Assembly: GCA_963824995.1 (NCBI GenBank)
Contig: CAWGRK010000009.1
Location: forward strand, 1 to 64,000
Origin: an uncultured Actinomycetes bacterium
Lineage (GTDB): Bacteria; Actinomycetota; Acidimicrobiia; Spongiisociales; DATADW01
DNA: 64,000 nt
Direction: 5' to 3'
Part shown: positions 12 through 55,640 of the stretch, piece by piece
Numbering within the stretch: the first letter of the stretch is position 1
Layout of the letters: each line of letters begins with the position of its first letter
Program-made: the position numbers and the translations under genes
The notes under the pieces: model-generated
Databases searched by the model: none
What the model saw: only the letters and a program-made list of their open reading frames with translations
Told to the model about the DNA's origin: nothing

Positions 12-2343
<2,332 letters not shown>

Positions 2344-2505: not shown

Positions 2506-2530
2506 AGGTCGCTGCGAAGCAGCGACCGTT

Positions 2531-2552
2531 TGTCACACCCTCCCGATATGTT
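2531..2552 (+). promoter_or_regulatory. PafBC/RecA-NDp-like DNA-damage promoter (TGTCAC-N10-TATGTT), leaderless to ATG 2559
   Basis: tTGTCAC acccTcccga TATGTT has the spacing of the mycobacterial TGTCGG-N10-TANNNT motif; ATG lies 6 nt after the -10. Confidence 0.6.
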
Positions 2553-2558
2553 GTTCCT

Positions 2559-2687
2559 ATGAGCACCGAACGCACGAACACCGAAAACTTGTTCGCTTCG
2601 CAAGGTTTGGAGGCCACCGAGATCTTCTCGGGTGATGCCACGGCGTGCCCGCATTGCGCGGCGGGTGACACTGCGCTCGCCGCCTGA
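2559..2687 (+). CDS. 42-aa leaderless microprotein with CxxC and C-terminal -ALAA
   Basis: Manual translation MSTERTNTENLFASQGLEATEIFSGDATACPHCAAGDTALAA*; ATG sits at the predicted TSS; fills the gap before adnA; below the ORF-track length cutoff. Confidence 0.6.
   Translation: MSTERTNTENLFASQGLEATEIFSGDATACPHCAAGDTALAA
2582..2595. promoter_or_regulatory. Putative LexA (Gram-positive SOS) box CGAAA-ACTT-GTTCG
   Basis: One mismatch to CGAAC-N4-GTTCG; upstream of DNA-repair genes. Confidence 0.45.
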
Positions 2688-2699
2688 ACAGCCAGACGC

Positions 2700-2721
2700 T
2701 GCCGGCCCTCCTACCTACGCT
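2700..2721 (+). promoter_or_regulatory. PafBC/RecA-NDp-like promoter (TGCCGG-N10-TACGCT) of adnA, leaderless
   Basis: One mismatch to TGTCGG-N10-TANNNT; GTG start of adnA 7 nt after the -10. Confidence 0.6.
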
Positions 2722-2728
2722 TGATCCC

Positions 2729-5700
2729 GTGGCCGAGACTGCGAGAGAGTGGCGGGTCGGCCCGAGCGATTGGCCGCAGGCGGTGGCCGATGTCGAGGGC
2801 CCTCAGTTGGTGGTCGCCGGGCCGGGGACCGGGAAGACCGAGTTCCTCGTCCGCCGTGCCCTCCATCTCATACGAAGCGACATCGCTTCGCCCGACCAGG
2901 TCCTCGTGCTCACCTTCTCGCGGCGCGCCGCCGCCGAGTTGGGCCGCCGCATCGTCGGGGGCCTGGAGCGGTCGCATCCGGGCGCAGCCGCTTCGACGTT
3001 CCATTCGTTCAGTTACCGCCTTCTCGAGACCTACGCCCCCACAGCGCTCGGCTGGTCCGATATGCCCTCCCTCCTGACCGGGCCCGAGCAGGTGGCCCTG
3101 GTTGGCGAGCTGTTGCGAAGCGAAAGCCCCGATGGGTGGCCGCCGGCGCTGCGCGGCCTCCTCGGCACCCGGACCTTCGCCGAAGAGGTCACCGATTTCC
3201 TGCTCCGCTCCCGCGAGTTCCTCTTGGACGAAGCTGCACTCTCCGCGAGGTGCGCCGCCAACGAGGACTGGTCGGCACTCCCCTCGTTCGACAAGAAGTA
3301 CCGGAACGAACTGATCGGCCGTGGCCGGATCGACTACGGCACCCTGCTCGAGGCGGCGGTCGAGATCCTCCAGCGACCAGAGGTAAACACCGCGCTGGCC
3401 GAGCAGGACCGATATGTGCTCGTTGACGAGTACCAGGACACGACCACAGCCCAGGCGAGGATGCTGCAACTCCTCACCGCCGTTCACCGCCGGCTCACCG
3501 CAGCAGCCGATCCCTACCAGTCGGTTTACAGCTTCCGCGGCGCCGAACTCCAGAACGTGGCTCGGTTCACCACCGACTTCCGAGACAGTGAGGGGCGGCC
3601 CGCCAAAAGGCTGGTGCTCACCACGTCGTTCAGGGTGCCGGCGGAGATACTGGTTGCTGCCGAGCGGATCACGGCAGGCGGCGAGTTGCCCGGTGCGGCG
3701 GGGCCGGTGACCCCGGCGCCGCATGCCGGGAGGGTCGAGGCGTATCTCTTCGCCCAGCAATCCGAAGAGGCCGAATGGATTGCGCGTGAGGTGAACCGTC
3801 TCCACCTCATGGAGCGGATGCCGTTCGCCGCCATGGCGGTTCTGGTCAGGACGAAGAGGCGGTTCCTCCCCGAGTTGTCGCGCGCCCTCGATCGGAGTGG
3901 CATCCCCCACGATCCGCCCGATGCCCGCCTGGTCGATCAGGCGGCGGTGCGTGTCGTCTTCGATTGCGCCCTCGCCGCCCGCCACCAGAGGTCGTCCGCG
4001 CCCGGCCACGCCGCCGAAGCAGACCGTGCGATGCGACGACTTCTCCTCGGCCCTCTTTTCACGCTCCCTCTGGGGGTGGAGCGCGAGTTGTTGCGGGAAC
4101 GGGTCCGCTCGGGTCTCCCGTGGAGCGATGTCCTCAGGGCGAACCTGCCCGCCGGGGGCGCCCTGGCTGAACTCCTGGACGACCACTCCTGGCTCGACAT
4201 GCAGGCGGCCGAGGGCTTCTGGCACCTCTGGACCACCCTCCCCCAATTCGCCACAGCGGTGACCGACCCCGCCCGACGCGAGGAGAGGTCGGCTTGGGCG
4301 GCGTTCGCCCAGGCGCTGGAGCGGCAGGCGGATCGAGACCCCAAGCTCACCTTCGCCGCATATCTGGACCTCGCCGAGCAGGATGACTTCGAGGCGACGC
4401 CGCTTCTGAGCTATCGGCCCCATGGTGAGGACAGGCTCACCTTGACCACCCTTCATCAAGCGAAGGGACTCGAGTTCGATGTGGTGTTCCTCGCCGATGC
4501 GGTCGAGGGGGTCTTTCCGGACATGAGGCGCAGCCGGTCTCTACTCAGGCCCCATCTGCTCTCACCCGATCGCTCGGATGATCCCGCCGACGTGGTGCGG
4601 TTCCGGCTCCAAGAGGAGATGAGGCTCGCCTATACCGCCATGACCAGGGCGCGAACCCGTGTGGTGTGGACAGCGACCAGGGCTGGAATCGACGAGGGCG
4701 AGCGACGTCCCAGTCGTTTCCTCATCGCTGCCGGCGACCTCGATGACACCGATGCGGCGCTCTCACCTCCCCGACTCGGCCCGATCACGGTTGCCGAGCA
4801 CGAGGCCGTGCTCAGACGTCTTGTGCTCGATCCATCACGGCCTCCGTCGTCCCGCCTCGCGGCCGCTTCGGTGCTGGCCTCGGAGCCGCATTCCGGGATG
4901 CGACCCGCCACCGAGTTCGCCTTCGTCCGTCGTCCCGGGCCAGATACGGGACTGGTCCCGGAGGATCTCAGGCTCTCGCCCTCGCAGGCGGACTCCTACA
5001 GGCAGTGCCCCAGGAGATACGCCTTCGAGCGCCGCCTCGGAGTGGGCAACGAATCGTCGATCTACGCCGCATTCGGCACGCTGATCCACCTGGTACTCGA
5101 GCGGACCGAAGAAGCGGCATTGGAGGCGGGTCTCGCGCACGGGACCGTGGAGAGAGCGATGGAGGAACTCGATCGGCGCCTGGCCCGCCGTGGAGGGGGA
5201 CTTCGGTGCCGCAGCTTTCGCCGAGGCATGGAGGCGGAGGGCCGAGGTGCTGATCGAGTCGATGTACGCCAACTGGATCCGGCCGGGTGACTCGGTCGTC
5301 GCCAACGAGCGCTCGGTGGCACTGCGGATGGACGGAATCGATTGGATGGGGAGGATCGACCGGGTCGAGGCCATCGGACCGGGACGGCTGAGGTTGGTCG
5401 ACTACAAGACTTCAAAGTCTGCGCCGACCTATGGGGATGCCGCCGAGGCACTGCAGCTTGGCTTCTACCTGTTGGCGGCGCAGTCCGACCCGGCGATTTC
5501 CGCACTTGGCGAGCCGGTGGAAGCCGAGTTCTGGTATCCGGCAATTGACTCCCCGAAGAAGATCCGGCCATTCAATCCAGACAAGCTGGAATCAGTCGGT
5601 GCGCTGCTGACCGAGGCCGCCGACGGGATCAAATCTGAGAATTGGGGATACCGCGCCGGCCCCCATTGCCGGACTTGCCGGGTGAGGGTGGTTTGCCCGG

Positions 5701-5735
5701 CATGGCCCGAAGGTCGGGAGGCCTACGCCCGATGA
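2729..5735 (+). CDS. adnA: AdnA-like UvrD-family helicase-nuclease; frameshift near 5190
   Basis: AGPGTGKT, LVDEYQD, DPYQSVYSFRGA, TLHQAKGLEF, EEMRLAYTAMTRA; PD-(D/E)XK nuclease GRIDRV/LVDYKT with C..CxxC-x5-C continues in ORF 5190..5735. Confidence 0.88.
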
Positions 5736-8700
5736 CGAAGGAGTACTCCTTCACCCCGAGCACCGAGCAGGCGACGGTGATCAACCGGCCCATGGAACCG
5801 CTGAGGGTCGATGCCGGAGCAGGGACAGGCAAGACAGCAACGCTCGCCGGCAGGATCGTGCACCTGGTCGAGAGGGGCGAGGTCGAGCCAGAACAGGTGC
5901 TCGGCATCACCTTCACCAACAAGGCGGCGGGCGAGTTGGCGGATCGCATCCGGACCGCCCTGGGAGATGCCGTCGGTCCGGGCCGCGAGGTCGAGGTGCA
6001 CACCTATCACGGCTTTGCCGCCCGTCTTCTCGAGCAATACGGAGCGCTGGTGGGCGTGGAGAGCGATGCGCGGATCGTCACCCCCACATTTGCTCGTCAG
6101 TTGATGGAGGACGCCCTGGCCGGTGGCAGCTACCGGTTGCTCGACCTGACCAACCGTGCCTACACCGTGAACAAGCTCGCCAGGCTGGCCAGCCAACTCG
6201 GCGACAATCTCCTCACCCCCACCATGGCGATCAAGGCCGTTCCTGTCGAGACCGACGACATTTGGGACGAGCGGCGCGAGTTGCTCGAGACACTGGAGCG
6301 GTACTGGAGCGAGAAGACCCGGATGCGGGTGGTCGATTACGCCGACCTGATCGAGAGGGCGGCGAAGCTGGTCGAGGAGCATCCGGAAATCGCCAAGCGG
6401 GTGGCGGACCGCTACCGGGTCGTCCTGCTCGACGAGTACCAGGACACCAACCCGGCGCAGCGGGAGATGCTCCGGGGGTTGTTCGCCGGCGGGTACTCGG
6501 TGACGGCGGTCGGTGACCCAGACCAGACGATCTACGAGTGGCGTGGGGCCTCTCTGGAGAACTTCGCCGGGTTCCCCGGGCACTTCCCGCTCCCGGATGG
6601 CGGCGAGGCGGCGACGCTTCCCCTTACTCTCAACCGCCGCTCGGGGAGCGCCATCCTCGATCTGGCCAACGACGTCAGAGACAAGATCGACGAGCGCGCT
6701 CGAAAGCCGCTCCAGCCGGTGCCGGGGACCCCGCCCGGCGAGATAACCGTGAGTTGGTCGACCAACGCCATCGACGAGGCGGAGAAGATCGCAACCATCA
6801 TGAGATCGCTCCACGACGATGGAATCGCCTGGCGGGACATGGCGGTGCTCTTCCGTAAGAACAAGGACATCGCGATCGTCCACGACGCCCTCGAGGAGCA
6901 TGGGATCCCAGTCGAGGTGGCCAACCTGGGCGGACTGCTCGGCATCCCCGAGGTGGCCGATGTCCACGCCTGGCTACGCATCCTCGGTGACCCCGACGAG
7001 AGCCCCTCCTTGATGAGGATTCTCACGGGTAGCCGCTTCCGGCTGGGATTGGGCGACATCGCCCCATTGGCGCGGTGGGTCCGGGCGCATCGGCCGACTC
7101 CCTCATCCGAGGGCGAGCCCGAGGGACCGCTCCCCCCCGCCGGCTTGCTCGAGGCCGTGGATCATCTCGAGGAGATACAAGGCTTGCGCTCGGGTGCCAT
7201 CGAGTCGATCGGACAGTTCAGAGACCTGTTCCGGGACCTGATTCGGGCCGCTCAGGGTGAGAGCCTGGTCGAGTTGACGCGTCAGATCCTCGACAAGACC
7301 GGCGCCTGGCAGGAGGTCGAGGCGATGACAGACGCCCACAGGCTCTCGGCGCGGCTCAACCTCTACCGGTTCCTCGACCTCGCCGAGGAGTGGTCGCCGC
7401 TCGAGGGCCGTCCCTCGCTTCAGGCATTCCTCGACCACCTCACTTTGATGCTGGAGAACCAGACAGAGGAACTCGACACCGCCCGGCTCAGCGGCGAGGA
7501 CGCAGTGGCGTTGCTCACCGTCCACCGGGCCAAGGGACTCGAGTGGCCGGCCGTGTTCATCCCGGCGCTCTACGAGCGCAACTTCCCCAGCACGTCGGGG
7601 GGCTTCGACGACCCATACAAGTTCGCCTCCCTGCTCCCCTACCAGTTGCTGCTCGACTCCTCTTCACTCCCCCCCATCACCCCCGACATGGCCGAGAGAG
7701 ACCGCTCCAACCTGCTCCGGATCAGGCACGCGGCACAGGAATGGCGCGTCGCATATGTCGCCGTGACCAGGGCCAAACAACGTCTCCACATGAGCGGCGC
7801 CCACTGGTATGGGTCCCCCGAGCCGACCAAGAACTCGGTGAAACCGAGCCCGCTTTTTCTCCTGGGGTGCTCCCACGCCGGCGAAGACGGCACCGAACTG
7901 GTCGGAGCGCCGCCAGAGAGACCTCCCCTGCTCAGATATGACAAGGCCGTCGATGGCGCTCCCGACCCGGTGTTCCCAAATGGTTGGAACGATGGCTTGC
8001 GCGCCGTGATCGACGACAACCGATGGGCGGCAGACCGCGCCGCCGAGTTGGGCGTCACCGCGGCCTTCGACCACGACCTCGAGGAGTTCCAACAACGTCT
8101 CTTCAGGATCCCAGAGCCTGCCGTATCCGATGGACCACCCGGTCCGTCGCAGATGAGCGTCTCGTCGCTCGTCACCTATGCCGAATGCCCGCTCCGCTAC
8201 TACTGGTCGGCTGTCGACCGGCTCCCCCGGCGGCCGTCTGCGGCAGCGCGGCGAGGGGTCGACGTCCACCGGCGAATCGAACTGCACAACATGGGAGCGG
8301 TACCGCTCGACGATCGCGAGATCGACAACTACGACATCACCCCGGCCGACCTCGAGACCGGCGATCGGGCAAGCGACCCCTACGATTCCTTCCGCTCCTC
8401 GCGCTTCGCCACGGCTCGTCCCCTGCTGGTCGAGGCGCCCTTCGATCTCAGACTTGCCGATGGGACCATCGTCCGCGGCCGGATCGACGCGGTGTACGGC
8501 GACGACACCGCATGGGAGGTGGTGGATTTCAAGTCGGGCCGGCCTCGGTCGGACCCCGCCCGCCGCGTCCAACTCCAGGCGTACGCGGTGGCGGTTCGCG
8601 ACGAGGCTGTGGCACTCAAGCCCCCGAGCTCGCTTGCGGTGACCTTCGCCTATCTGGGCGATGGCCTGGTCGAGGTGACCGAGCAGGCCGACGACGAGTG

Positions 8701-8848
8701 GGTTGCCGAGGCGCGCCAGCGCATCGATCTGATCAACAAAGGCATCGCACAGGAGGTGTTCGACCCCATCCCGTCGGAGGCGTGCGCCTACTGCGACTTC
8801 CTCACTTTCTGCGAGGCGGGTCGGGCCTTCATGGCGGAAGCGGAATGA
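5732..8848 (+). CDS. adnB: AdnB-like UvrD-family helicase-nuclease
   Basis: AGAGTGKT, LLDEYQDTN, GDPDQTIYEWRGA, TVHRAKGLEW, YVAVTRAK, GRIDAV..VVDFKSG, CAYCDFLTFC; ATG overlaps the adnA stop (ATGA). Confidence 0.9.
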   Translation: MTKEYSFTPSTEQATVINRPMEPLRVDAGAGTGKTATLAGRIVHLVERGEVEPEQVLGITFTNKAAGELADRIRTALGDAVGPGREVEVHTYHGFAARLLEQYGALVGVESDARIVTPTFARQLMEDALAGGSYRLLDLTNRAYTVNKLARLASQLGDNLLTPTMAIKAVPVETDDIWDERRELLETLERYWSEKTRMRVVDYADLIERAAKLVEEHPEIAKRVADRYRVVLLDEYQDTNPAQREMLRGLFAGGYSVTAVGDPDQTIYEWRGASLENFAGFPGHFPLPDGGEAATLPLTLNRRSGSAILDLANDVRDKIDERARKPLQPVPGTPPGEITVSWSTNAIDEAEKIATIMRSLHDDGIAWRDMAVLFRKNKDIAIVHDALEEHGIPVEVANLGGLLGIPEVADVHAWLRILGDPDESPSLMRILTGSRFRLGLGDIAPLARWVRAHRPTPSSEGEPEGPLPPAGLLEAVDHLEEIQGLRSGAIESIGQFRDLFRDLIRAAQGESLVELTRQILDKTGAWQEVEAMTDAHRLSARLNLYRFLDLAEEWSPLEGRPSLQAFLDHLTLMLENQTEELDTARLSGEDAVALLTVHRAKGLEWPAVFIPALYERNFPSTSGGFDDPYKFASLLPYQLLLDSSSLPPITPDMAERDRSNLLRIRHAAQEWRVAYVAVTRAKQRLHMSGAHWYGSPEPTKNSVKPSPLFLLGCSHAGEDGTELVGAPPERPPLLRYDKAVDGAPDPVFPNGWNDGLRAVIDDNRWAADRAAELGVTAAFDHDLEEFQQRLFRIPEPAVSDGPPGPSQMSVSSLVTYAECPLRYYWSAVDRLPRRPSAAARRGVDVHRRIELHNMGAVPLDDREIDNYDITPADLETGDRASDPYDSFRSSRFATARPLLVEAPFDLRLADGTIVRGRIDAVYGDDTAWEVVDFKSGRPRSDPARRVQLQAYAVAVRDEAVALKPPSSLAVTFAYLGDGLVEVTEQADDEWVAEARQRIDLINKGIAQEVFDPIPSEACAYCDFLTFCEAGRAFMAEAE

Positions 8849-9453
8849 TCATCGTGGCCGCCGCCCTCGCCGGGGCGCTCGCCGGGTCGGCACCGTCGAT
8901 CGCGGTACACCTGACGTACCGCGCCCAGAGCGGAGCACCCGACCGGTCGATCAGACCGATGCTGTGGGCGGCGCTCGAGGTAGCCGGGGGCATGGTCGCC
9001 GCATTCGCCGGACGTCTGATCGCGGGCGACGTCGGCGGCCTGGTGGCCGGGTGCGCGGCGGTGCTCGCCGACATCACCGTGCCTTCGCTCTGGCCGAGGG
9101 AAGACGACCCACGAGCCTCTGCCGGCCCCGGCGGTGGGCTCGGTATGGCGGGCGGTGTCCTCGTCGTGTTGTGGCCAGTCGGAGCCCTGGTGTGGGCTGG
9201 CGCATTGACCCTCACCTACCGGATGACCCACACACTGTCGCGGGCGGTTGTCGCCAGCGCCCTGCTGCTGCTGGCGGTTGTGGCGGTCTGGGGCTGGTTT
9301 GGCCTGGCCAACTTCTGGGGCGTAGACCCCGGTCCCGGTGTGATGCTCGCCGTGCTCACGATGACGATGCTGCTCGGCTTCCGGTTTCTGCGCGACCCTC
9401 GAAGACCCGAGGAGACGACGCCAGACGCGGTCGGTTGGTCTACGCCCGAATAG
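8845..9453 (+). CDS. PlsY-like membrane protein with degenerate motifs
   Basis: Hydrophobic about 200 aa; LAGSAPS and GGGLGMAGGVL resemble PlsY segments; ATGA overlap with adnB. Confidence 0.5.
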   Translation: MIIVAAALAGALAGSAPSIAVHLTYRAQSGAPDRSIRPMLWAALEVAGGMVAAFAGRLIAGDVGGLVAGCAAVLADITVPSLWPREDDPRASAGPGGGLGMAGGVLVVLWPVGALVWAGALTLTYRMTHTLSRAVVASALLLLAVVAVWGWFGLANFWGVDPGPGVMLAVLTMTMLLGFRFLRDPRRPEETTPDAVGWSTPE

Positions 9454-9909
9454 TCACAGGACGCGGCCTTCGCGGACCTCGATCACCAGCGTCACCGGCC
9501 CTTCATTCACCATTCTCAGCCGCATGGTGGCGCCAAAGAGGCCGCTCGATGTGGTGACACCGCGGTGGCTGAGCCCATCCACCACCCCCTCGACGATCCC
9601 GGTTGCATCCTCAGGTTTGGCTGCTGCGTCCCATGACGGGCGCCGGCCCCTCCGCACTGCCCCCAAGAGCGTGAACTGGCTCACCACGAGAGCCGCCCCA
9701 CCGGTGTCGAGCAGGGACAGGTTCATCCTGCCCTGCTCGTCGGACATGATCCTGAGGTTGGCCAGTTTGTCGGCAAGAGCATCGGCGTCGGCGTCGCCGT
9801 CGCCGCGCTCCACGCCCACGAGCACCACAAGACCGGGGCCTATCTCGGCGATCGTCGCCCCGCCGACCTCGACCGCTGCCTCCGAGACGCACTGCACCAC
9901 GGCGCGCAT
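9454..9909 (-). CDS. dtd: D-aminoacyl-tRNA deacylase
   Basis: MRAVVQCVSEA, KLANLRI, SQFTL, NEGPVT motifs. Confidence 0.95.
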   Translation of the reverse strand: MRAVVQCVSEAAVEVGGATIAEIGPGLVVLVGVERGDGDADADALADKLANLRIMSDEQGRMNLSLLDTGGAALVVSQFTLLGAVRRGRRPSWDAAAKPEDATGIVEGVVDGLSHRGVTTSSGLFGATMRLRMVNEGPVTLVIEVREGRVL

Positions 9910-9942
9910 GGTGCGATGTTGCCACCGGCATACACTCATCGC

Positions 9943-12297
9943 ATGGTCGCCACGACGGACAGGGCACCGGGGAGACCCGTGCCCGAGCCGGGTTGGCCTG
10001 CCGAGGTGACAGACGCCACGGTATGCCTTGTCGATGCCTCCTCCGAGTTCGAGCACCGGCTGCTCGAGGCCTGGATCGATCGTCACCGACCAAGCAGGTC
10101 CCAGGTCGAGGTGATCGACCTGCCCTCCTCTCGCCGCCGCCGCTCTCTGCGGATTGACCCACGGCTCGAGGCGCGGCTGAACCGAGAGGACGATCCATGG
10201 CTGCTCCCGCTGCGGATCGCCTGGCTGCCCCCTCTCCGTCGAGGAAAGCGCACCGCCAGCATCATCGACGCCCTGAAGCTGGGTGATCCGAGGGACCCGG
10301 ACTTCCTCAGACAACGGGTCATCTATGCGCAGCACCCGGACAGGTGTGTGATCGTCGTTGCCGCGGCGGCGCGTGCCGCGAACATCCGCGCCGACCACTC
10401 CGAGGCTGTCGAACCCGAGCACCTCGACCGATACGTATCGAGACGCGCCCTGCTGGCACTGGAGCGGGCGGAGCGCCGGATCAGGGGCAACCGCTACAAG
10501 GTCCCCAAGTTCGTCATGGAGGACATCACGGGGCGTGGCTCGTTCCGGGACGAGTTGGTCCGGTTGGCCCCATCGGCGGGGATCGCTGCGGAGAGGGCGA
10601 TCGGACGCGGGGCGCGCTATTTGCGGGAGATCGCCGCCTCCCACAGCCCATTTCTGATCGACATCATCGCCAACGGCATCCACTGGCTCTACCGGCAGGG
10701 CTACGGGCGGATCGACTACGACACCGAGCAGTTCCGTCAGTTGTACCGGCTGAGCGAGGAGCAGCCGCTCGTCTTTCTCCCCTCCCACAAGTCCCAACTC
10801 GACCGGCTGTCACTCCAATACTCGCTGTGGGAGAACGACCTCCCGCCAAACCACACCGCCGGCGGGATCAACATGAACTTCTTCCCTGTGGGACCGCTGG
10901 TCCGAAGGACCGGCGTGTTCTTCATCAGGCGCAGCTTCAAGGACAACGCGATCTACAAGTGGGTTCTCCAGAGCTACCTCGACTACCTGGTCGAGAAGCG
11001 GTTCTCCATCGAGTTCTACATCGAAGGAGGGAGGTCGCGCTCGGGCAAACTGCTGCCCCCGCGTTTCGGTTTGCTCGCCTACCTCGTTGACTCTTGGCGG
11101 CGGGGCAAGAGCGAGGACATCTATCTCATCCCGACGTCGATCGCATACGACCAGATCCAGGATGTCGGCACTTACGCAGCCGAGCAGCGCGGTGCGGAGA
11201 AGAAGGCCGAGAGCCTCGGGTGGGCCCTGAGCGCCATGCGGCAGCTACGACGCCGCTACGGGGACATCTACATCAGGTTCGGTGAGCCGGTCTCGGTCGC
11301 CAAGGAGTTGTCCGGGGCGGAGCAGACCGCCGAAGGAGATATCGACCTGCGGAAGCTGGCCTTCGAAGTGATGGTGCGTATCAACCGGGTGACCCCGGTG
11401 ACCGCCGCCTCGCTGGTCACCACGACGTTGCTCTCGCTCCAGGACCGTGCCGCCACCTTGGACGAGATCACCACCGAGCTCGGCGAATTGGTCGCCGACG
11501 TGGAACAACGTGCCCTTCCCACCGCCGGGGTGCTCCGACTCGGAGAACCAGGTGAGGTTCGCAAGGTCCTCGAACTCCTTGCGGAGCACAACCTGGTCAC
11601 GAGCTTCACCGGAGCGACCGAGTCGCTGTACCTGATCACGCCCGACCAGCACATCGCTGCCGCCTTCTATCGCAACACGATCATCCACCACTTCGTCAAC
11701 GGGGCGATAGGCGAAGTCGCCCTCTTGGGTGCTGACGAAGCGGGACGCCCTGACGCAGTGTGGGAGGGCGCCCTCGAACTGCGCGACCTGCTCAAGTTCG
11801 AGTTCTTCTTCCCGCCCAAGGAGTCATTTCTCGAGGAGATCCGCCAGGACATCGAGCGTCAGGTGCCTGGATGGGAGAGCGCACTCGAGGACGATGTGTC
11901 GGTCGTCGGCACGGTAGATCGGATGGCACCGCTCCGGGCCCACTGGGTGCTTCGGCCATTCCTAGAGGCCTATCAGGTGGTCGCCGACGTGCTGGTTCGA
12001 CTCGGCGCCGGCGACGCCACCGAGGAGAAGCAGTTGCTCCAGGAGTGCCTGGCGCTGGGCAAGCAATACCGGATGCAGCGGCGCATCGCCGCCGAGGAGT
12101 CGGTGTCGCAACTGCTATTCGCCAACGGGCTCAAACTGGCGGCCAACCGGGGATTGACCGAGACCGGGCCCGGAGTTGCCGAGAGAAGGCTGGACTTCGC
12201 CCGTCAGCTCGCCGAGGCTCTCGACCGGGTGGACAGGATCGCGGCACTTGCGGCGGGAAGACGAACCCGAGCCTCCGGTTCCAGGTCGAGAACCTGA
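9943..12297 (+). CDS. plsB: Glycerol-3-phosphate 1-O-acyltransferase
   Basis: PSHKSQLD (HxxxxD), AGGINMNF, GVFFIRRSF, FYIEGGRSRSGKLLPP; TACACT -10 6 nt before ATG. Confidence 0.9.
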   Translation: MVATTDRAPGRPVPEPGWPAEVTDATVCLVDASSEFEHRLLEAWIDRHRPSRSQVEVIDLPSSRRRRSLRIDPRLEARLNREDDPWLLPLRIAWLPPLRRGKRTASIIDALKLGDPRDPDFLRQRVIYAQHPDRCVIVVAAAARAANIRADHSEAVEPEHLDRYVSRRALLALERAERRIRGNRYKVPKFVMEDITGRGSFRDELVRLAPSAGIAAERAIGRGARYLREIAASHSPFLIDIIANGIHWLYRQGYGRIDYDTEQFRQLYRLSEEQPLVFLPSHKSQLDRLSLQYSLWENDLPPNHTAGGINMNFFPVGPLVRRTGVFFIRRSFKDNAIYKWVLQSYLDYLVEKRFSIEFYIEGGRSRSGKLLPPRFGLLAYLVDSWRRGKSEDIYLIPTSIAYDQIQDVGTYAAEQRGAEKKAESLGWALSAMRQLRRRYGDIYIRFGEPVSVAKELSGAEQTAEGDIDLRKLAFEVMVRINRVTPVTAASLVTTTLLSLQDRAATLDEITTELGELVADVEQRALPTAGVLRLGEPGEVRKVLELLAEHNLVTSFTGATESLYLITPDQHIAAAFYRNTIIHHFVNGAIGEVALLGADEAGRPDAVWEGALELRDLLKFEFFFPPKESFLEEIRQDIERQVPGWESALEDDVSVVGTVDRMAPLRAHWVLRPFLEAYQVVADVLVRLGAGDATEEKQLLQECLALGKQYRMQRRIAAEESVSQLLFANGLKLAANRGLTETGPGVAERRLDFARQLAEALDRVDRIAALAAGRRTRASGSRSRT

Positions 12298-49196: not shown

Positions 49197-50728
49197 ATGG
49201 ACATGGCGCGTTCCTCTGGGGTCCTGCTCCACCTCACCAGCCTCCCCGGACCCGACGGGATCGGTGACCTCGGACCTGCAGCCTTCGAGTGGGTAGACAG
49301 GCTGGCCAGCACCGGGTGCCGCTACTGGCAGATCCTGCCTCTCGGACCGACAGGCTACGGGGACTCGCCCTATCAGTGCTTCTCTGCCTTCGCCGGCAAC
49401 GCATATGTGGTCGCATCGCAACCGCTGCTGGAGGAGGGGCTGCTCGTGCCGTCGGACCTGGGCGACCGCCCCCAGTTCTCGCCCCACCACGTCGACTATG
49501 GCCGGGTGATTCCCTGGAAGCTCGATCTGCTCGACCGCGCTTTCGATCGGTTCGTCCCAGACGACGAATACGCCGCATTCCGCCGGTCCGAGGCGGCATG
49601 GCTCGACGACTTCGCCCTGTTCATGGCGCTCAAGGACCAGTACGGCGGCCGCCCCTGGGTGGACTGGCCGGCGCCGCTGCGCGACCGCCACCCAGGGCAG
49701 TTGGAGCGGGCGATGGACGCCTACCGGGTGGAGGTGGAGCGTCACGCCTTCCGGCAGTGGCTCTTCCACCGGCAGTGGGGTGAAGTCCGCCGGCGCGCCC
49801 ATCGACGCGGGGCTGCTGGTGATCGGCGACATCCCGATCTTCGTCGCCCACGACTCGGCCGACGTCTGGGCCAACCGGGACCTGTTCCTTCTCGACGAAC
49901 ACGGACGGCCGACCGTGGTGGCCGGGGTGCCTCCCGACTACTTCTCGCCGACTGGTCAGCTTTGGGGCAACCCGCTCTACGACTGGGACCGGCATCGTCA
50001 CGACCGGCTATCAGTGGTGGATCGGGCGGCTGCAATCGGGCTCTCGCTGGTGGACCTGGTCCGACTCGACCACTTCCGCGGATTCGCCGGCTACTGGGAG
50101 ATCCCGGCCGACGCCGAGACGGCAATCGCCGGCCGCTGGGTACCCGGACCCGGAGCCGACGTTCCTCGAGCGCGTGCGAGGCGGCTGGGGCGACCTCCCC
50201 CTCATCGCCGAGGACCTCGGCGAGATAACCCCGGACGTCCACGCGCTGCGCGACCGCTTCGAGCTACCCGGGATGCGCATCCTCCAGTTCGCCTTCGACG
50301 AGCGACATGAGCAACCCCTTCCTTCCCCACAACTACGCCAGCGGAGCGTCGTCTACACCGGCACCCACGACAACGACACCACCTGGGGTTGGTGGACCAC
50401 CGCCCCCGACAACGAGCGGCGGATGGCGATGGACTACCTGGGGTCGGACGGGACCGACATCGCATGGGACCTGATCCGCGCCGGTTGGCGCTCACCCGCC
50501 GCGGTGGCGGTGGCGCCACTCCAGGACGTCCTCGACCTGGGCACTGAGGCGCGGATGAACTTCCCAAGCCGGCCCGCAGGCAACTGGCGTTGGCGGGTCG
50601 GAGTGCCCCCGCTGCCCGAAGCCCTTTGGGAGCGACTGTCGGAACTCAACGCCGAGACGGGGCGAGTGATCGATACGCGATTAGCCGGCCTGGCCGCGCC
50701 CGCCGGAGATTGGCGGCCGTCGAGTTGA
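49197..50728 (+). CDS. malQ: 4-alpha-glucanotransferase (amylomaltase), frameshifted
   Basis: RSSGVLLHLTSLPG, WQILPLGPTG.GDSPY, IGDIPIFVAHDSADVW, GQLWGNPLY, RLDHFRGF, IAEDLG, YTGTHDNDT across three ORFs. Confidence 0.93.
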
Positions 50729-52972: not shown

Positions 52973-54294
52973 GTGGGGGACGAAGACCTGGAAGACGACA
53001 GCAAAGGAGCCGCAAACGGAACGACCCTTCGGGTCGGCATCCGTCCGCTGGTGGATTTCATCCACACCGAGGCAGCGGGTGGCGTCGTCTTGCTCGCTGC
53101 CACCCTCGTGGCACTTCTCCTAGCCAACTCCCCGTGGAGCGAGGCATACCAGTCGTTCTGGCACACGCCTTTCTCGATCGAAGCAGGGCCGCTGCACCTG
53201 AGCCTCGACCTCCAGGAGGTGGTCAACGACGGGCTCATGGCCGTCTTCTTCTTCGTCGTCGGGTTGGAGATCAAGCGCGAGCTGGTCGCCGGGCACCTGT
53301 CGCGAGGCGCCAGGCGGCGCTGCCCGCGATCGCCGCCGTCGGCGGGATGGTGGTGCCGGCGCTGCTCTACATGGCCGTCAACGCCGGCGGGCACCGGCAG
53401 CGCGCGGGTGGGGCGTCCCGATGGCGACCGACATCGCCTTCGCGGTCGGCGTGCTGGCGCTGCTCGGCGACCGCGTCCCGGCGTCGCTCAAGGTGCTCCT
53501 GCTCGCCCTCGCCATCGTCGACGACATCGGCGCCATCGCTCGTGATCGCCCTCTTCTACAGCGACGACGTGCACCTCGGCTGGGCTGCGGCCGCGGCCGC
53601 GCTGGTGGCGGCGAGGCGTTGATGCGATCGCTCGGCGTGCGGTGGTGGCCTGCCTACGCCGGGGCCGGGGTGGCGGCGTGGCTGCTCCGCGTTGGAGAGC
53701 GGGATCCACGCCACCATCGCCGGTGTCACCCTCGGCCTGATGGCACCCACGCAGCCGGCACGGCGGAGCGACATGATCGACGAGTACGAGCTCACCGACC
53801 TGTCGACGCCTCGGGCCGCCAGACAGACGGCGGTCGCCGCCCGTGAATCGGTCTCGGTCGTCGAGTGGCTGGAGCACGGACTCCATCCGTGGACAAGCTT
53901 CGTGATCCTCCCCATTTTCGCCCTGGCGAATGCTGGCATCCCGTTGAGCAGCGAAACGCTCGAGGGAGCAGCCGGGTCCCCGATCACACTCGGCGTGATA
54001 CTCGGTTTGGTGGTCGGAAAGACGGTGGGGATCACGGCCTTCGCCTGGCTGGCAGTGCGTACCCGGGCCGGCGAGTTGCCGGAAGGCGCAACGTGGCCGG
54101 CGATCACGGGAGTGGCGGCCGTGGCGGGGATCGGGTTCACCGTCGCCATCTTCATCGCCGGTCTCGCATTCGAGGACCCCGGGATGCAGGACCTGGCGAA
54201 GATCGGAATCCTCGGCGGCTCCCTGCTCGCCGCGGTGCTCGGAGCACTTCTCCTCCGCTTACCGGGCCGGACAGAGCCATTTCCCGAAGACTGA
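52973..54294 (+). CDS. nhaA: Na+/H+ antiporter NhaA, multiply frameshifted
   Basis: [70 protein letters not shown]. Confidence 0.92.
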
Positions 54295-54297
54295 CCC

Positions 54298-55168
54298 TCA
54301 CCCCGCCGTCATCCCGGCCACCGATTTCGAGCGCCGCACCCAGCGGCACCGCCAGTCGGTCCATGTCCGCCCACGGGTCACCATCCGCCATTCTCGGTCC
54401 GATGGTGCCAACCCGCCACCGATCGGGCTTGCTCCTCCCGATTTCACCCCAGGTCATAGGCACCGCCACCGGGGCGCGCGGCTTTGGGCGGACCGACCAT
54501 GGGCACACCCCTGATTGGGCGTACCGGTTGCGGAGCCAGTCGATGAACACCCTGCCCTCGCGCTTGGCGATACGGAACTCCGTGGTCAGACGGTCGGGGT
54601 GCCGCGCCGCCAGGGCGGTGGCGATGGCCCTTGCGGTCTCCCCCACCTGCTCGATGGTCGCCTCCGGGACCAGCGGCACGACGACGTGGTAGCCCTTCGA
54701 CCCCGTGGTCATCGGCAGACCGGCGAGCCGTAACTCCCCGAGGATCTCCTCTACCCGCCGTGCCGCCCAACGGGCCGCGACCACGTCGCCTTCGGGTGGG
54801 TCGAGGTCGAAGATCATCCGGTCGGGCCGGTCCAGTGAGGGTGTGCGGCTCGTCCAGACATGGAAGGTCACGGTCCCTTGGTTGGCCAGGTAGACCAGTC
54901 CGTCTCCGTCGTTGACCACGGGGTGCTCCACCGTTCCCTCCTCCTTGGGGACCACGACCCGCTCGATCGACTCTGGGAAGTAGTCGGCGGCGTTCTTCTG
55001 GAAGAAGCCCTGCTGGCCGATGCCGTTGGGGTACCGCTCGAGCGTGAGCGGCCGGCCCTTGGCATGGGGAACCATCAGCGGGGCAACCGCCTCGTAATAG
55101 CCGACCAGGTCGCCCTTGGTGATCCCGTCCTCGGGGAACAGCACCTTTTCGGGGTTGCTCACCTCCAT
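54298..55168 (-). CDS. Stand-alone LigD-type primase-polymerase domain protein
   Basis: SNPEKVLFP..GITKGDL..YY, RYPNG....FFQK, FDLDP, TTGSKGYH, FIDWLRN, WSVR; the 3' end is uncertain (ORF runs to 54152, overlapping nhaA). Confidence 0.9.
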
Positions 55169-55196
55169 GGGACGATTCTGCCCAAGCGGCGGCCGG

Positions 55197-55640
55197 CTAC
55201 GACGGATCGAAGCGGACCCGGCGTCCCCTCCGCTCCAGTTCCTCGACGAGAGCCGCCTCGCTGAAACCCGCGAGGTCGATCGACCAGTCACGCTCTCTCG
55301 GCGGCGGAGCCACCTCGATGAGCCCGGCGACCCGGTCGCGAAGGGTGCGGGCCCATGCCCGCCCTTTGGCACCGGCCTCGAGACTGAGGGTGCCGTCCGA
55401 GTTGGCGCGGTAGACCCTGGCCTCCATCTGAGGATTGGCACGCGATCCGCGCTCCCCGTACACGAGGAGGACCGACCCGGCGGGCACATCCTGGATGCCG
55501 CCGACGGCGACGAAGTCGCCCTCGAAGGCCCACCCCGTATCGAGCGAGCCGTCCACGTTGGTGACCACCTTCGCCCAATTCTTGTGTCGCTCGTCGCCGA
55601 TCAGCGGCACCTCGACCGGGATGAGGACGGCTTCGTCCAT
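55197..55640 (-). CDS. Hypothetical protein (147 aa)
   Basis: Protein-like ORF MDEAVLIPV..HKNWAKVVTNVD..GWAFEGDF..; TACAGT -10 7 nt before ATG. Confidence 0.7.
   Translation of the reverse strand: MDEAVLIPVEVPLIGDERHKNWAKVVTNVDGSLDTGWAFEGDFVAVGGIQDVPAGSVLLVYGERGSRANPQMEARVYRANSDGTLSLEAGAKGRAWARTLRDRVAGLIEVAPPPRERDWSIDLAGFSEAALVEELERRGRRVRFDPS

Follow-up and report, generated by a model that had tools for sequence, protein, structure and literature searches.

AdnAB is the actinobacterial counterpart of RecBCD/AddAB, and in mycobacteria its expression serves as the textbook measure of the PafBC response to damage. In Mycobacterium smegmatis, the in vivo PafBC motif was reported as tGTCgg(N10)tA(N3)T, in which tA(N3)T is the SigA -10 element; the GTC triplet is read by PafB and is conserved across actinobacteria, and such promoters do without a -35 element (PMC8635444). 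In both M. smegmatis and M. tuberculosis, adnA was reported to depend on PafBC alone (PMC8682763), and PafBC is activated by single-stranded DNA (ssDNA; PMC11804915). The literature search gave no PafBC work on the class Acidimicrobiia. Here, we describe an open reading frame (ORF) of 42 codons located just before an adnAB-like gene pair in an uncultured member of that class (contig CAWGRK010000009.1 of assembly GCA_963824995.1, positions 1 to 64,000). This stretch of 64 kb is hereinafter referred to as the window; positions are window coordinates, and names of the type L001 denote related loci.

Two other kinds of system, damage-induced protease-limited small proteins and leaderless first-cistron ORFs, are already known and resemble the locus. 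Among damage-induced proteins limited by proteolysis, SulA/Lon and DinI are examples. RecN of Escherichia coli, an SOS protein, is removed by ClpXP via its C-terminus (PMC10714372); RecN and related SOS proteins and M. tuberculosis RsdA (VAA degron) were reported to end in a hydrophobic residue followed by Ala-Ala, and ClpXP turnover limits the lifetime of RecN and RsdA. Leaderless first-cistron small ORFs that regulate operons were described in mycobacteria (bioRxiv 10.1101/834739; PMC4633059), among them those of Shell et al. (2015) and the polycysteine attenuators of Canestrari et al.

The ORF began with ATG at 2559 and ended with TGA at 2685-2687 on the plus strand, where an initial annotation of the window, made from its letters alone, had placed it; as also described there, it was co-directional with adnA just downstream and divergent from lon. 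ATG 2559 was the first start codon past an in-frame TAG at 2505-2507, and the translation of the 42 codons was MSTERTNTENLFASQGLEATEIFSGDATACPHCAAGDTALAA. For comparison, 21 related loci were fetched via the AdnA-like protein, all from Acidimicrobiia or from unclassified actinobacterial metagenome-assembled genomes. The six-frame search for the peptide covered these 21 loci, and wider searches used protein collections. By tblastn and ORF listing, 11 of the 21 loci (L001-L009, L013, and L020) carried the peptide directly ahead of adnA, with a gap of 24-66 nt between its stop and the adnA start. The L001 peptide was identical to that of the window, and the L002 copy was broken by two 1-base deletions in a locus full of frameshifts elsewhere.

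The ratio of non-synonymous to synonymous substitution rates (dN/dS; pairwise Nei-Gojobori estimates) was 0.09-0.24 in the five closest pairs: 0.086 for the window and L007 (9 synonymous and 3 non-synonymous differences), 0.111 for L008 and L009, 0.149 for L003 and L004, 0.153 for L006 and L020, and 0.235 for L005 and L013. Length differences among clades were whole codons. The peptide frame alone was open in all 10 intact copies, each of the other five frames being stopped in at least one copy. Further, M1, G16, C30, C33, A41, and A42 were invariant in an alignment of 16 short-form sequences, and all of these except M1 were noted as kept across lineages whose AdnA proteins are just 50-60% identical. 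Synteny with adnAB, dN/dS below 1, and retention of the CxxC motif and the terminal AA had been named beforehand in the initial annotation as tests of its ORF, and the data above bear out all three. On these comparative grounds, window positions 2559-2687 encode a real, conserved protein-coding gene under purifying selection. It is highly improbable that the ORF is a frame open by chance in the 5' region of adnA and owes its conservation to a DNA or RNA element. The small size of the ORF, the 67% G+C content of the DNA, the three antisense frames that are all open in the window, and the absence of annotation in most records would suit such a frame, but substitutions were mainly synonymous, indels comprised whole codons, no other frame stayed open in the 10 copies, and the start codon was fixed 6-7 nt from a -10 element. 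Nor was there a sign of an RNA element, since Rfam gave no match at the gathering score or at E ≤1, and the predicted mRNA fold was no more stable than that of shuffled sequences (z = -0.44).

A single-sequence search of 5.8 billion proteins yielded one homologue only, which was 93% identical. The same homologue was one of three phmmer matches among 1.84 billion representatives; the other two were rejected, P0002 as a frameshift fusion of 289 residues and P0003, a repeat protein of 758 residues, as a chance match. With a profile of the 10 copies, 11 matches of 38-71 residues were obtained from the 5.8 billion proteins, all ending in [LI]AA, and every match with a source name was called "hypothetical protein". 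All family members were acidic (pI 4.0-5.0, net charge -2 to -9), and G16 was present in each of them. No match above the Pfam or NCBIfam cut-offs or at a significant E-value was obtained with Pfam, NCBIfam, PHROGs, and PADLOC, a profile search of the PDB returned generic knuckles only (best E 0.0035), and the ESM Atlas contained no named neighbour (scores ≤0.89). No match was found by tblastn in phage and plasmid collections, and no description of such a protein was found in the literature. A profile search for fused forms among proteins of 112-2000 residues gave P0002 only, which is weak evidence. As judged from these searches, the ORF represents a new, undescribed small-protein family, in agreement with the earlier remark that no described family was known, and the family is confined to Acidimicrobiia as far as the searches reach. 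The ORF was unannotated in most records, and the analysis adds a family mostly missed by gene callers. Two other identities were considered and rejected: a precursor of a ribosomally synthesised and post-translationally modified peptide or of a cofactor, as no modifying-enzyme genes were located nearby, and a split-off N-terminus of AdnA, as AdnA starts aligned without extension in the peptide-less loci.

Immediately upstream of the ORF, a predicted promoter of PafBC type was identified (Table 1). The initial annotation had pointed to the form TGTCAC-N10-TATGTT, and this form does fit the published PafBC motif in the GTC triplet at -26, the tA(N3)T element at -10, and the 10 nt between them; a -35 element is lacking, and the start codon is at the expected +1. 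The -10 element was separated from ATG by 6 nt (2553-2558). Over both strands of the window, this site was the single match to the pattern TGTCAY-N10-TANNNT, whereas 0.03 matches were expected from 100 shuffles, three of which reached one match. A generic sigma-70 -35/-10 scan found no promoter here, an expected outcome where a -35 element is lacking. Of the 21 related loci, 20 carried the same pattern, with 35 sites altogether. All sites were on the gene strand, and they preceded the peptide gene, adnA (in peptide-less loci), a stand-alone nuclease gene, or the long paralogue of L006. Variants of the element were TGTCGT before the long paralogue of L020 and TGTCCC before adnA in L012 and L014. 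At every site before the peptide gene, adnA, or the nuclease gene, the start codon followed the -10 element by 6-7 nt. Because the start codon coincides with the expected +1, the microprotein mRNA should be leaderless, with ATG at the inferred transcription start. Induction by damage and binding of PafBC are predicted from the motif. As in the mycobacterial promoters, the operon downstream is adnAB, which was reported to be PafBC-dependent in M. smegmatis and M. tuberculosis; unlike there, the first product is a microprotein and not a repair enzyme. PafBC-type promoter architecture with leaderless starts would thereby extend to the little-studied class Acidimicrobiia.

A GC-rich hairpin (2507-2527) stops 3 nt short of TGTCAC. 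Its arms carried compensating changes in L007, one loop base was changed in L003, and L004 lacked the hairpin. One possibility is an insulating terminator that remains from an ancestral nuclease-peptide arrangement, another the palindrome of a regulator. Between lon and the hairpin, short direct repeats were present (AGACGGA-type, 2416-2443; GCCG[TC]CTGCCGT, 2479-2503), which are mutually complementary. The repeat stretch (2416-2505) was not conserved, and other repeats replace it in L007.

The C-terminal tail was the second constant property of the family. All 20 members (16 short and 4 long) ended in AA; the antepenultimate residue was L or I in all 16 short forms, so that the terminal LAA emphasised in the initial annotation is kept as [LI]AA, and was L, V, or M in the four long forms. 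The tail codons varied synonymously (CTC/CTG/CTA, GCC/GCT/GCA, GCC/GCG), and the constraint therefore acts at the protein level. As a control, none of 151 long ORFs of the window and the loci ended in [LIVM]AA and four ended in AA; among 1399 small ORFs of 30-70 amino acids, 21 ended in AA, of which 11 also carried CxxC. For M. tuberculosis ClpX, a C-terminal VAA was reported to make for better binding and unfolding of a substrate than GAA or AAA, and VDD was hardly bound (bioRxiv 10.1101/491043). The strongest short C-terminal degrons of E. coli were reported to be ssrA-like, with the optimum [L/F/Y/W]-[L/A/R]-L-A-A, and a terminal Ala-Ala by itself is insufficient there (PMC10862746). The window tail, TALAA, matches the last four positions of this optimum, and residues 38-42 were unstructured in the AlphaFold2 model, with a predicted local distance difference test score (pLDDT) below 50. 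The window peptide contained no lysine and therefore could not be pupylated, pupylation being the reported removal route of many mycobacterial repair proteins (PMC6789036). By analogy with these systems, ClpXP may degrade the peptide via its ssrA-like tail. Proteins of the RecN and RsdA type are large proteins or cleavage-exposed fragments with known functions and ClpXP-limited lifetimes, whereas the present peptides comprise 40-49 residues, the tail is about one tenth of the molecule, and their turnover is predicted only.

All 16 short forms and all four long forms kept C30 and C33. The window peptide had one CxxC and one His, that is, a single knuckle where a zinc ribbon has two. Its best Pfam match was Zn_ribbon_PaaD (E 0.079), with 13 bits where the cut-off is 27, and the AlphaFold2 model of the short form (pLDDT 61) consisted of a helix at residues 3-14 and coil elsewhere. 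A paralogue of 63 residues was identified in four loci (Table 1). It aligned with the short form over the first 37 residues, beyond which it had about 20 extra residues, a second CxxC, and the tail, and hhalign of the short-form alignment against it gave a probability of 85% (E 5.9e-6). In L008 and L009, the ATG of the paralogue overlaps the stop of a stand-alone nuclease gene (translationally coupled), and in L006 and L020 the paralogue is preceded by a separate predicted promoter of PafBC type. In L006, a Bax1-I family gene (1482-2198) follows the paralogue.

The model of the long form (pLDDT 64) showed a helix and four short strands. With two CxxC about 20 residues apart and this predicted arrangement, the paralogue resembles zinc ribbons of the Elf1/ELOF1-like, ZifS, and Lar-like kinds. 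Foldseek matches of the long-form model, the best of which were Elf1-type zinc ribbons, were non-significant (E at least 0.2) and were not used as evidence. The long forms were below the Pfam and NCBIfam cut-offs, the L006 long form reaching 2.5e-4 and 7.3e-4 in Pfam, and most Pfam, NCBIfam, and PHROG matches had E of at least 0.003; the sub-threshold zinc-ribbon and Lar-like matches were set aside as generic knuckle similarity. We infer that the family resembles a zinc ribbon, with one knuckle lost in the short form, and metal binding by the short form would then need a dimer or a partner.

A maximum-likelihood tree of AdnA was built from 17 of the 21 sequences, with L002, L004, L007, and L020 dropped as frameshifted, fused, or truncated. 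Eight peptide-less loci formed one AdnA clade (support 99/99), and the peptide-bearing loci formed three deep lineages on the other side of the tree. From this topology, one gain or one loss suffices for the distribution of the peptide. In the peptide-less clade, the same promoter type was located directly before a leaderless adnA. Leaderless small ORFs were also found in the same slot before adnA in L016 (3838-3981, 47 codons) and L017 (3783-3968, 61 codons), ending in SAA and RAA, respectively; they could be highly diverged members of the family or independent slot fillers.

Taken as a whole, the ORF is probably, in our assessment, a real microprotein under a damage-type promoter, with a degron-like tail, that acts on the resection machinery and also delivers ribosomes in cis. 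DNA damage would lead PafBC to switch on a leaderless transcript with the peptide cistron first, followed by adnA and adnB. The peptide would fold as an N-terminal helix with a zinc knuckle, the second knuckle coming from another copy or a partner. Its exposed ssrA-like tail would pass it to ClpXP, and it would persist only while the promoter fires. In the weakest step of the proposal, the peptide would act in trans on AdnAB or a RecB-type nuclease as a short-lived accessory or a brake; in cis, its translation would bring ribosomes to the adnA start, which mostly has no Shine-Dalgarno (SD) sequence.

A more specific version, which is speculative and rather unlikely as formulated, is a self-destructing regulator of double-strand-break resection that is made together with AdnAB. 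Such a peptide would use its helix and zinc knuckle to dock onto a PD-(D/E)XK module, either that of AdnA or the stand-alone RecB-type nuclease, and would restrain or direct cutting until its removal by ClpXP, and the two-knuckle paralogue would serve the stand-alone nuclease. Complex prediction with AdnA residues 1-955 (L001) and the peptide returned "no answer", which bears on binding in neither direction. The literature searches revealed no small host-encoded protein that partners or regulates AdnAB, and we know of no such control layer encoded in the host genome for AdnAB, AddAB, or RecBCD. If true, ClpXP removal of the nuclease-docked peptide would give resection a protease-set time window. 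Conserved across deep Acidimicrobiia lineages, placed first on the predicted damage-induced transcript, and equipped with an apparent ClpXP tag, the family in any case offers a readily testable candidate for protease timing of a microprotein in DNA repair.

Several observations weigh against a microprotein acting on resection. Since the eight-locus sister clade does without it, the peptide, although old on the evidence of the tree, is dispensable for AdnAB as such, and the small ORFs of L016 and L017 contained no Cys and did not resemble the family in hhalign (probability 3% and 0.3%). Distant pairs had a dN/dS of 0.35-0.58 (window-L003, window-L004, L007-L003, and window-L005), partly because dS is saturated and the linker is variable. 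A single CxxC cannot alone bind zinc in the usual four-ligand way, and both structure models were of low confidence. The -26 hexamer reads TGTCAC or TGTCAT here, unlike TGTCGG in mycobacteria, and only GTC is shared with the mycobacterial consensus; in the Pfam annotation of the 64-kb window, no pafB or pafC gene was present. The term "ssrA-like" draws on the transfer-messenger RNA tags of other bacteria. Finally, as judged from the spacer sequence described below, adnA may retain its own leaderless promoter, or a remnant of it, and so be independent of the small ORF. Adjacency to lon, named in the initial annotation, is a separate matter: it was confined to the window's own clade, in which it was mapped in the window, L001, and L004. 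Elsewhere, the upstream gene was a stand-alone nuclease gene, a glutamate dehydrogenase gene, a DUF488 gene, or another gene, and a functional link to lon was rejected for this reason.

The region before adnA bears on whether the ORF works through its translation or through its product. The 4-mers AGGA, GGAG, and GAGG were absent within 20 nt before adnA in 9 of the 11 peptide-bearing sequences, in which the gap was 24-41 nt, and GGAG was present at -10 in L006 and L020, with a gap of 63-66 nt. With no SD-like 4-mer before adnA, the small ORF may also serve adnA translation in cis, and the spacing and SD absence fit translational coupling or re-initiation. The spacer of the window also holds TGCCGG (2700-2705), N10, and a -10-like TACGCT (2716-2721), followed by 7 nt and the adnA GTG, which is one base off a second PafBC-type promoter. 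In 12 of 14 sequences, a TANNNT hexamer preceded the adnA start by 6-11 nt (0.0044 per position expected by chance), and the upstream hexamer, TGCCGG in the window, was not conserved among related sequences. Further, GGAGG within the ORF (2609-2613) can pair with CCUCC in the spacer (2707-2711). Both sides co-changed in L003 and L004 (GCAGG and CCUGC; 4 sequences, 2 lineages), and RNAalifold on the 4 sequences gave three compensated pairs, too few to count.

These data could be accommodated by a purely cis-acting upstream ORF that carries ribosomes to the SD-less adnA start or gates it, the peptide itself being without a job and the tail serving clean disposal. The ORF is the first cistron of the predicted leaderless transcript, beginning at the transcription start before an operon as in the mycobacterial cases, and the GGAGG/CCUCC pairing could contribute; moreover, the peptide-less clade puts adnA itself at the leaderless position, and L016 and L017 hold unrelated small ORFs in the same slot. 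A role in cis alone is nevertheless unlikely. The amino acid sequence is strongly constrained, as seen in the dN/dS of the closest pairs and the invariant G16, C30, C33, A41, and A42; the 63-residue homologue is no upstream ORF of adnA, given its nuclease overlap or own promoter; and, as noted, the mRNA was no more stable than shuffled sequences. Cis and trans roles are also not exclusive. The ORF differs from the polycysteine attenuators in having no consecutive Cys codons, its two Cys being two residues apart, and in preceding adnA/adnB and not genes of cysteine metabolism, and it differs from the mycobacterial first-cistron small ORFs in that the peptide is conserved over deep lineages and has a paralogue elsewhere in the genome. 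If the ORF acted only in cis, the family would be a clean example of a leaderless operon gaining or losing its leading cistron.

A microprotein acting on resection also has to be weighed against a trans-acting factor whose target is not AdnAB, for example a checkpoint or cell-cycle inhibitor, an acidic ssDNA mimic feeding back on PafBC, or a ClpXP decoy that stabilises other substrates in repair. Such a factor seems quite unlikely, given that all 11 short-form loci were linked to adnA or a RecB-type nuclease gene. For an inhibitor of division, the peptide would be atypical in having no membrane segment, which most division inhibitors outside E. coli have. The proposal does find support in the long forms of L006 and L020, which are not next to adnA, in the net charge of the family, acidic in all members, in the activation of PafBC by ssDNA, and in the precedent of damage-induced, protease-limited proteins such as RecN.

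The features of the window and the related genes of other loci are listed in Table 1. The architecture of AdnA/AdnB, i.e., tandem subunits each with a UvrD-type motor and a C-terminal PD-(D/E)XK nuclease, was present. No NCBIfam model for AdnA or AdnB scored above the cut-off, and the names adnA and adnB therefore rest on domain architecture. The AdnA proteins of relatives carried four invariant Cys in the nuclease domain (C760, C980, C983, and C989), in line with the Cys motifs that had been ascribed to AdnAB.

Table 1. Coordinates of the ORF, its predicted control elements and neighbouring genes in the window, and of related genes in other loci.
Feature	Position	Strand	Remarks
Microprotein gene	2559-2687	+	42 codons + TGA
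Codons C30-P-H-C33, single CxxC knuckle	2646-2657	+	C30 and C33 invariant
Codons L40-A41-A42, ssrA-like tail	2676-2684	+	A41 and A42 invariant
Predicted PafBC-type hybrid promoter	2531-2552	+	-26 element TGTCAC 2531-2536, N10, -10 element TATGTT 2547-2552
Perfect 9-bp hairpin	2507-2527	+	Arms 2507-2515 and 2519-2527, loop GAA; inverted repeat, 100% complementary
Spacer, microprotein stop to adnA GTG	2688-2728	+	41 nt; no Shine-Dalgarno-like 4-mer
Lon gene, divergent	12-2343	-	3 frame pieces: 544-2343, 305-652, 12-308 (Pfam)
adnA-like gene, UvrD-type motor + PD-(D/E)XK nuclease	2729-5735	+	2 frames: 2729-5290, 5190-5735
adnB-like gene, UvrD-type helicase + PD-(D/E)XK/Cas4-like nuclease	5642-8848	+	Pfam
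63-residue paralogue	L009 961-1152; L008 1063-1254; L006 1218-1409; L020 764-955		Two CxxC; ends in [LVM]AA
Stand-alone nuclease gene, examples	L001 365-1196; L005 3958-4774; L009 148-964		

The genes lon and adnA were split in the window. In L001, which is 98% identical to the window, adnA was intact in one frame and encoded a protein of 1001 residues, and lon was intact in L004 and L001 (777-788 residues). Several other ORFs of the window matched Pfam models only partly (for example, Glyco_hydro_77, 49197-50228; Na+/H+ antiporter, 53692-54294). The split lon and adnA and these partial ORFs are probably due to assembly indels, and real gene decay may be the alternative. In L004, adnA and adnB were located within one open frame of 2057 codons (3962-10135), which may be a fusion or the result of an assembly indel removing the adnA stop. 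A gene with a LigD primase-polymerase domain (non-homologous end joining) was encoded on the minus strand of the window at 54152-55489, and the 64-kb motif scan showed no PafBC-type motif of the tested form nearby.

The stand-alone PD-(D/E)XK (Cas4/AddB-like) nuclease gene, encoding about 250-290 residues, had the same promoter type and a leaderless start in 16 of the 21 loci. Its place was ahead of the adnAB cluster, in some loci with lon or a glutamate dehydrogenase gene in between, and by comparison with these loci it would sit just past the left edge of the window in the window's genome. In L005, upstream of the nuclease gene, identical translated stretches were found on the minus strand at 2241-2318, 2934-3011, and 3627-3704, and their spacing of 693 nt suggests a tandem repeat of about 0.7 kb.

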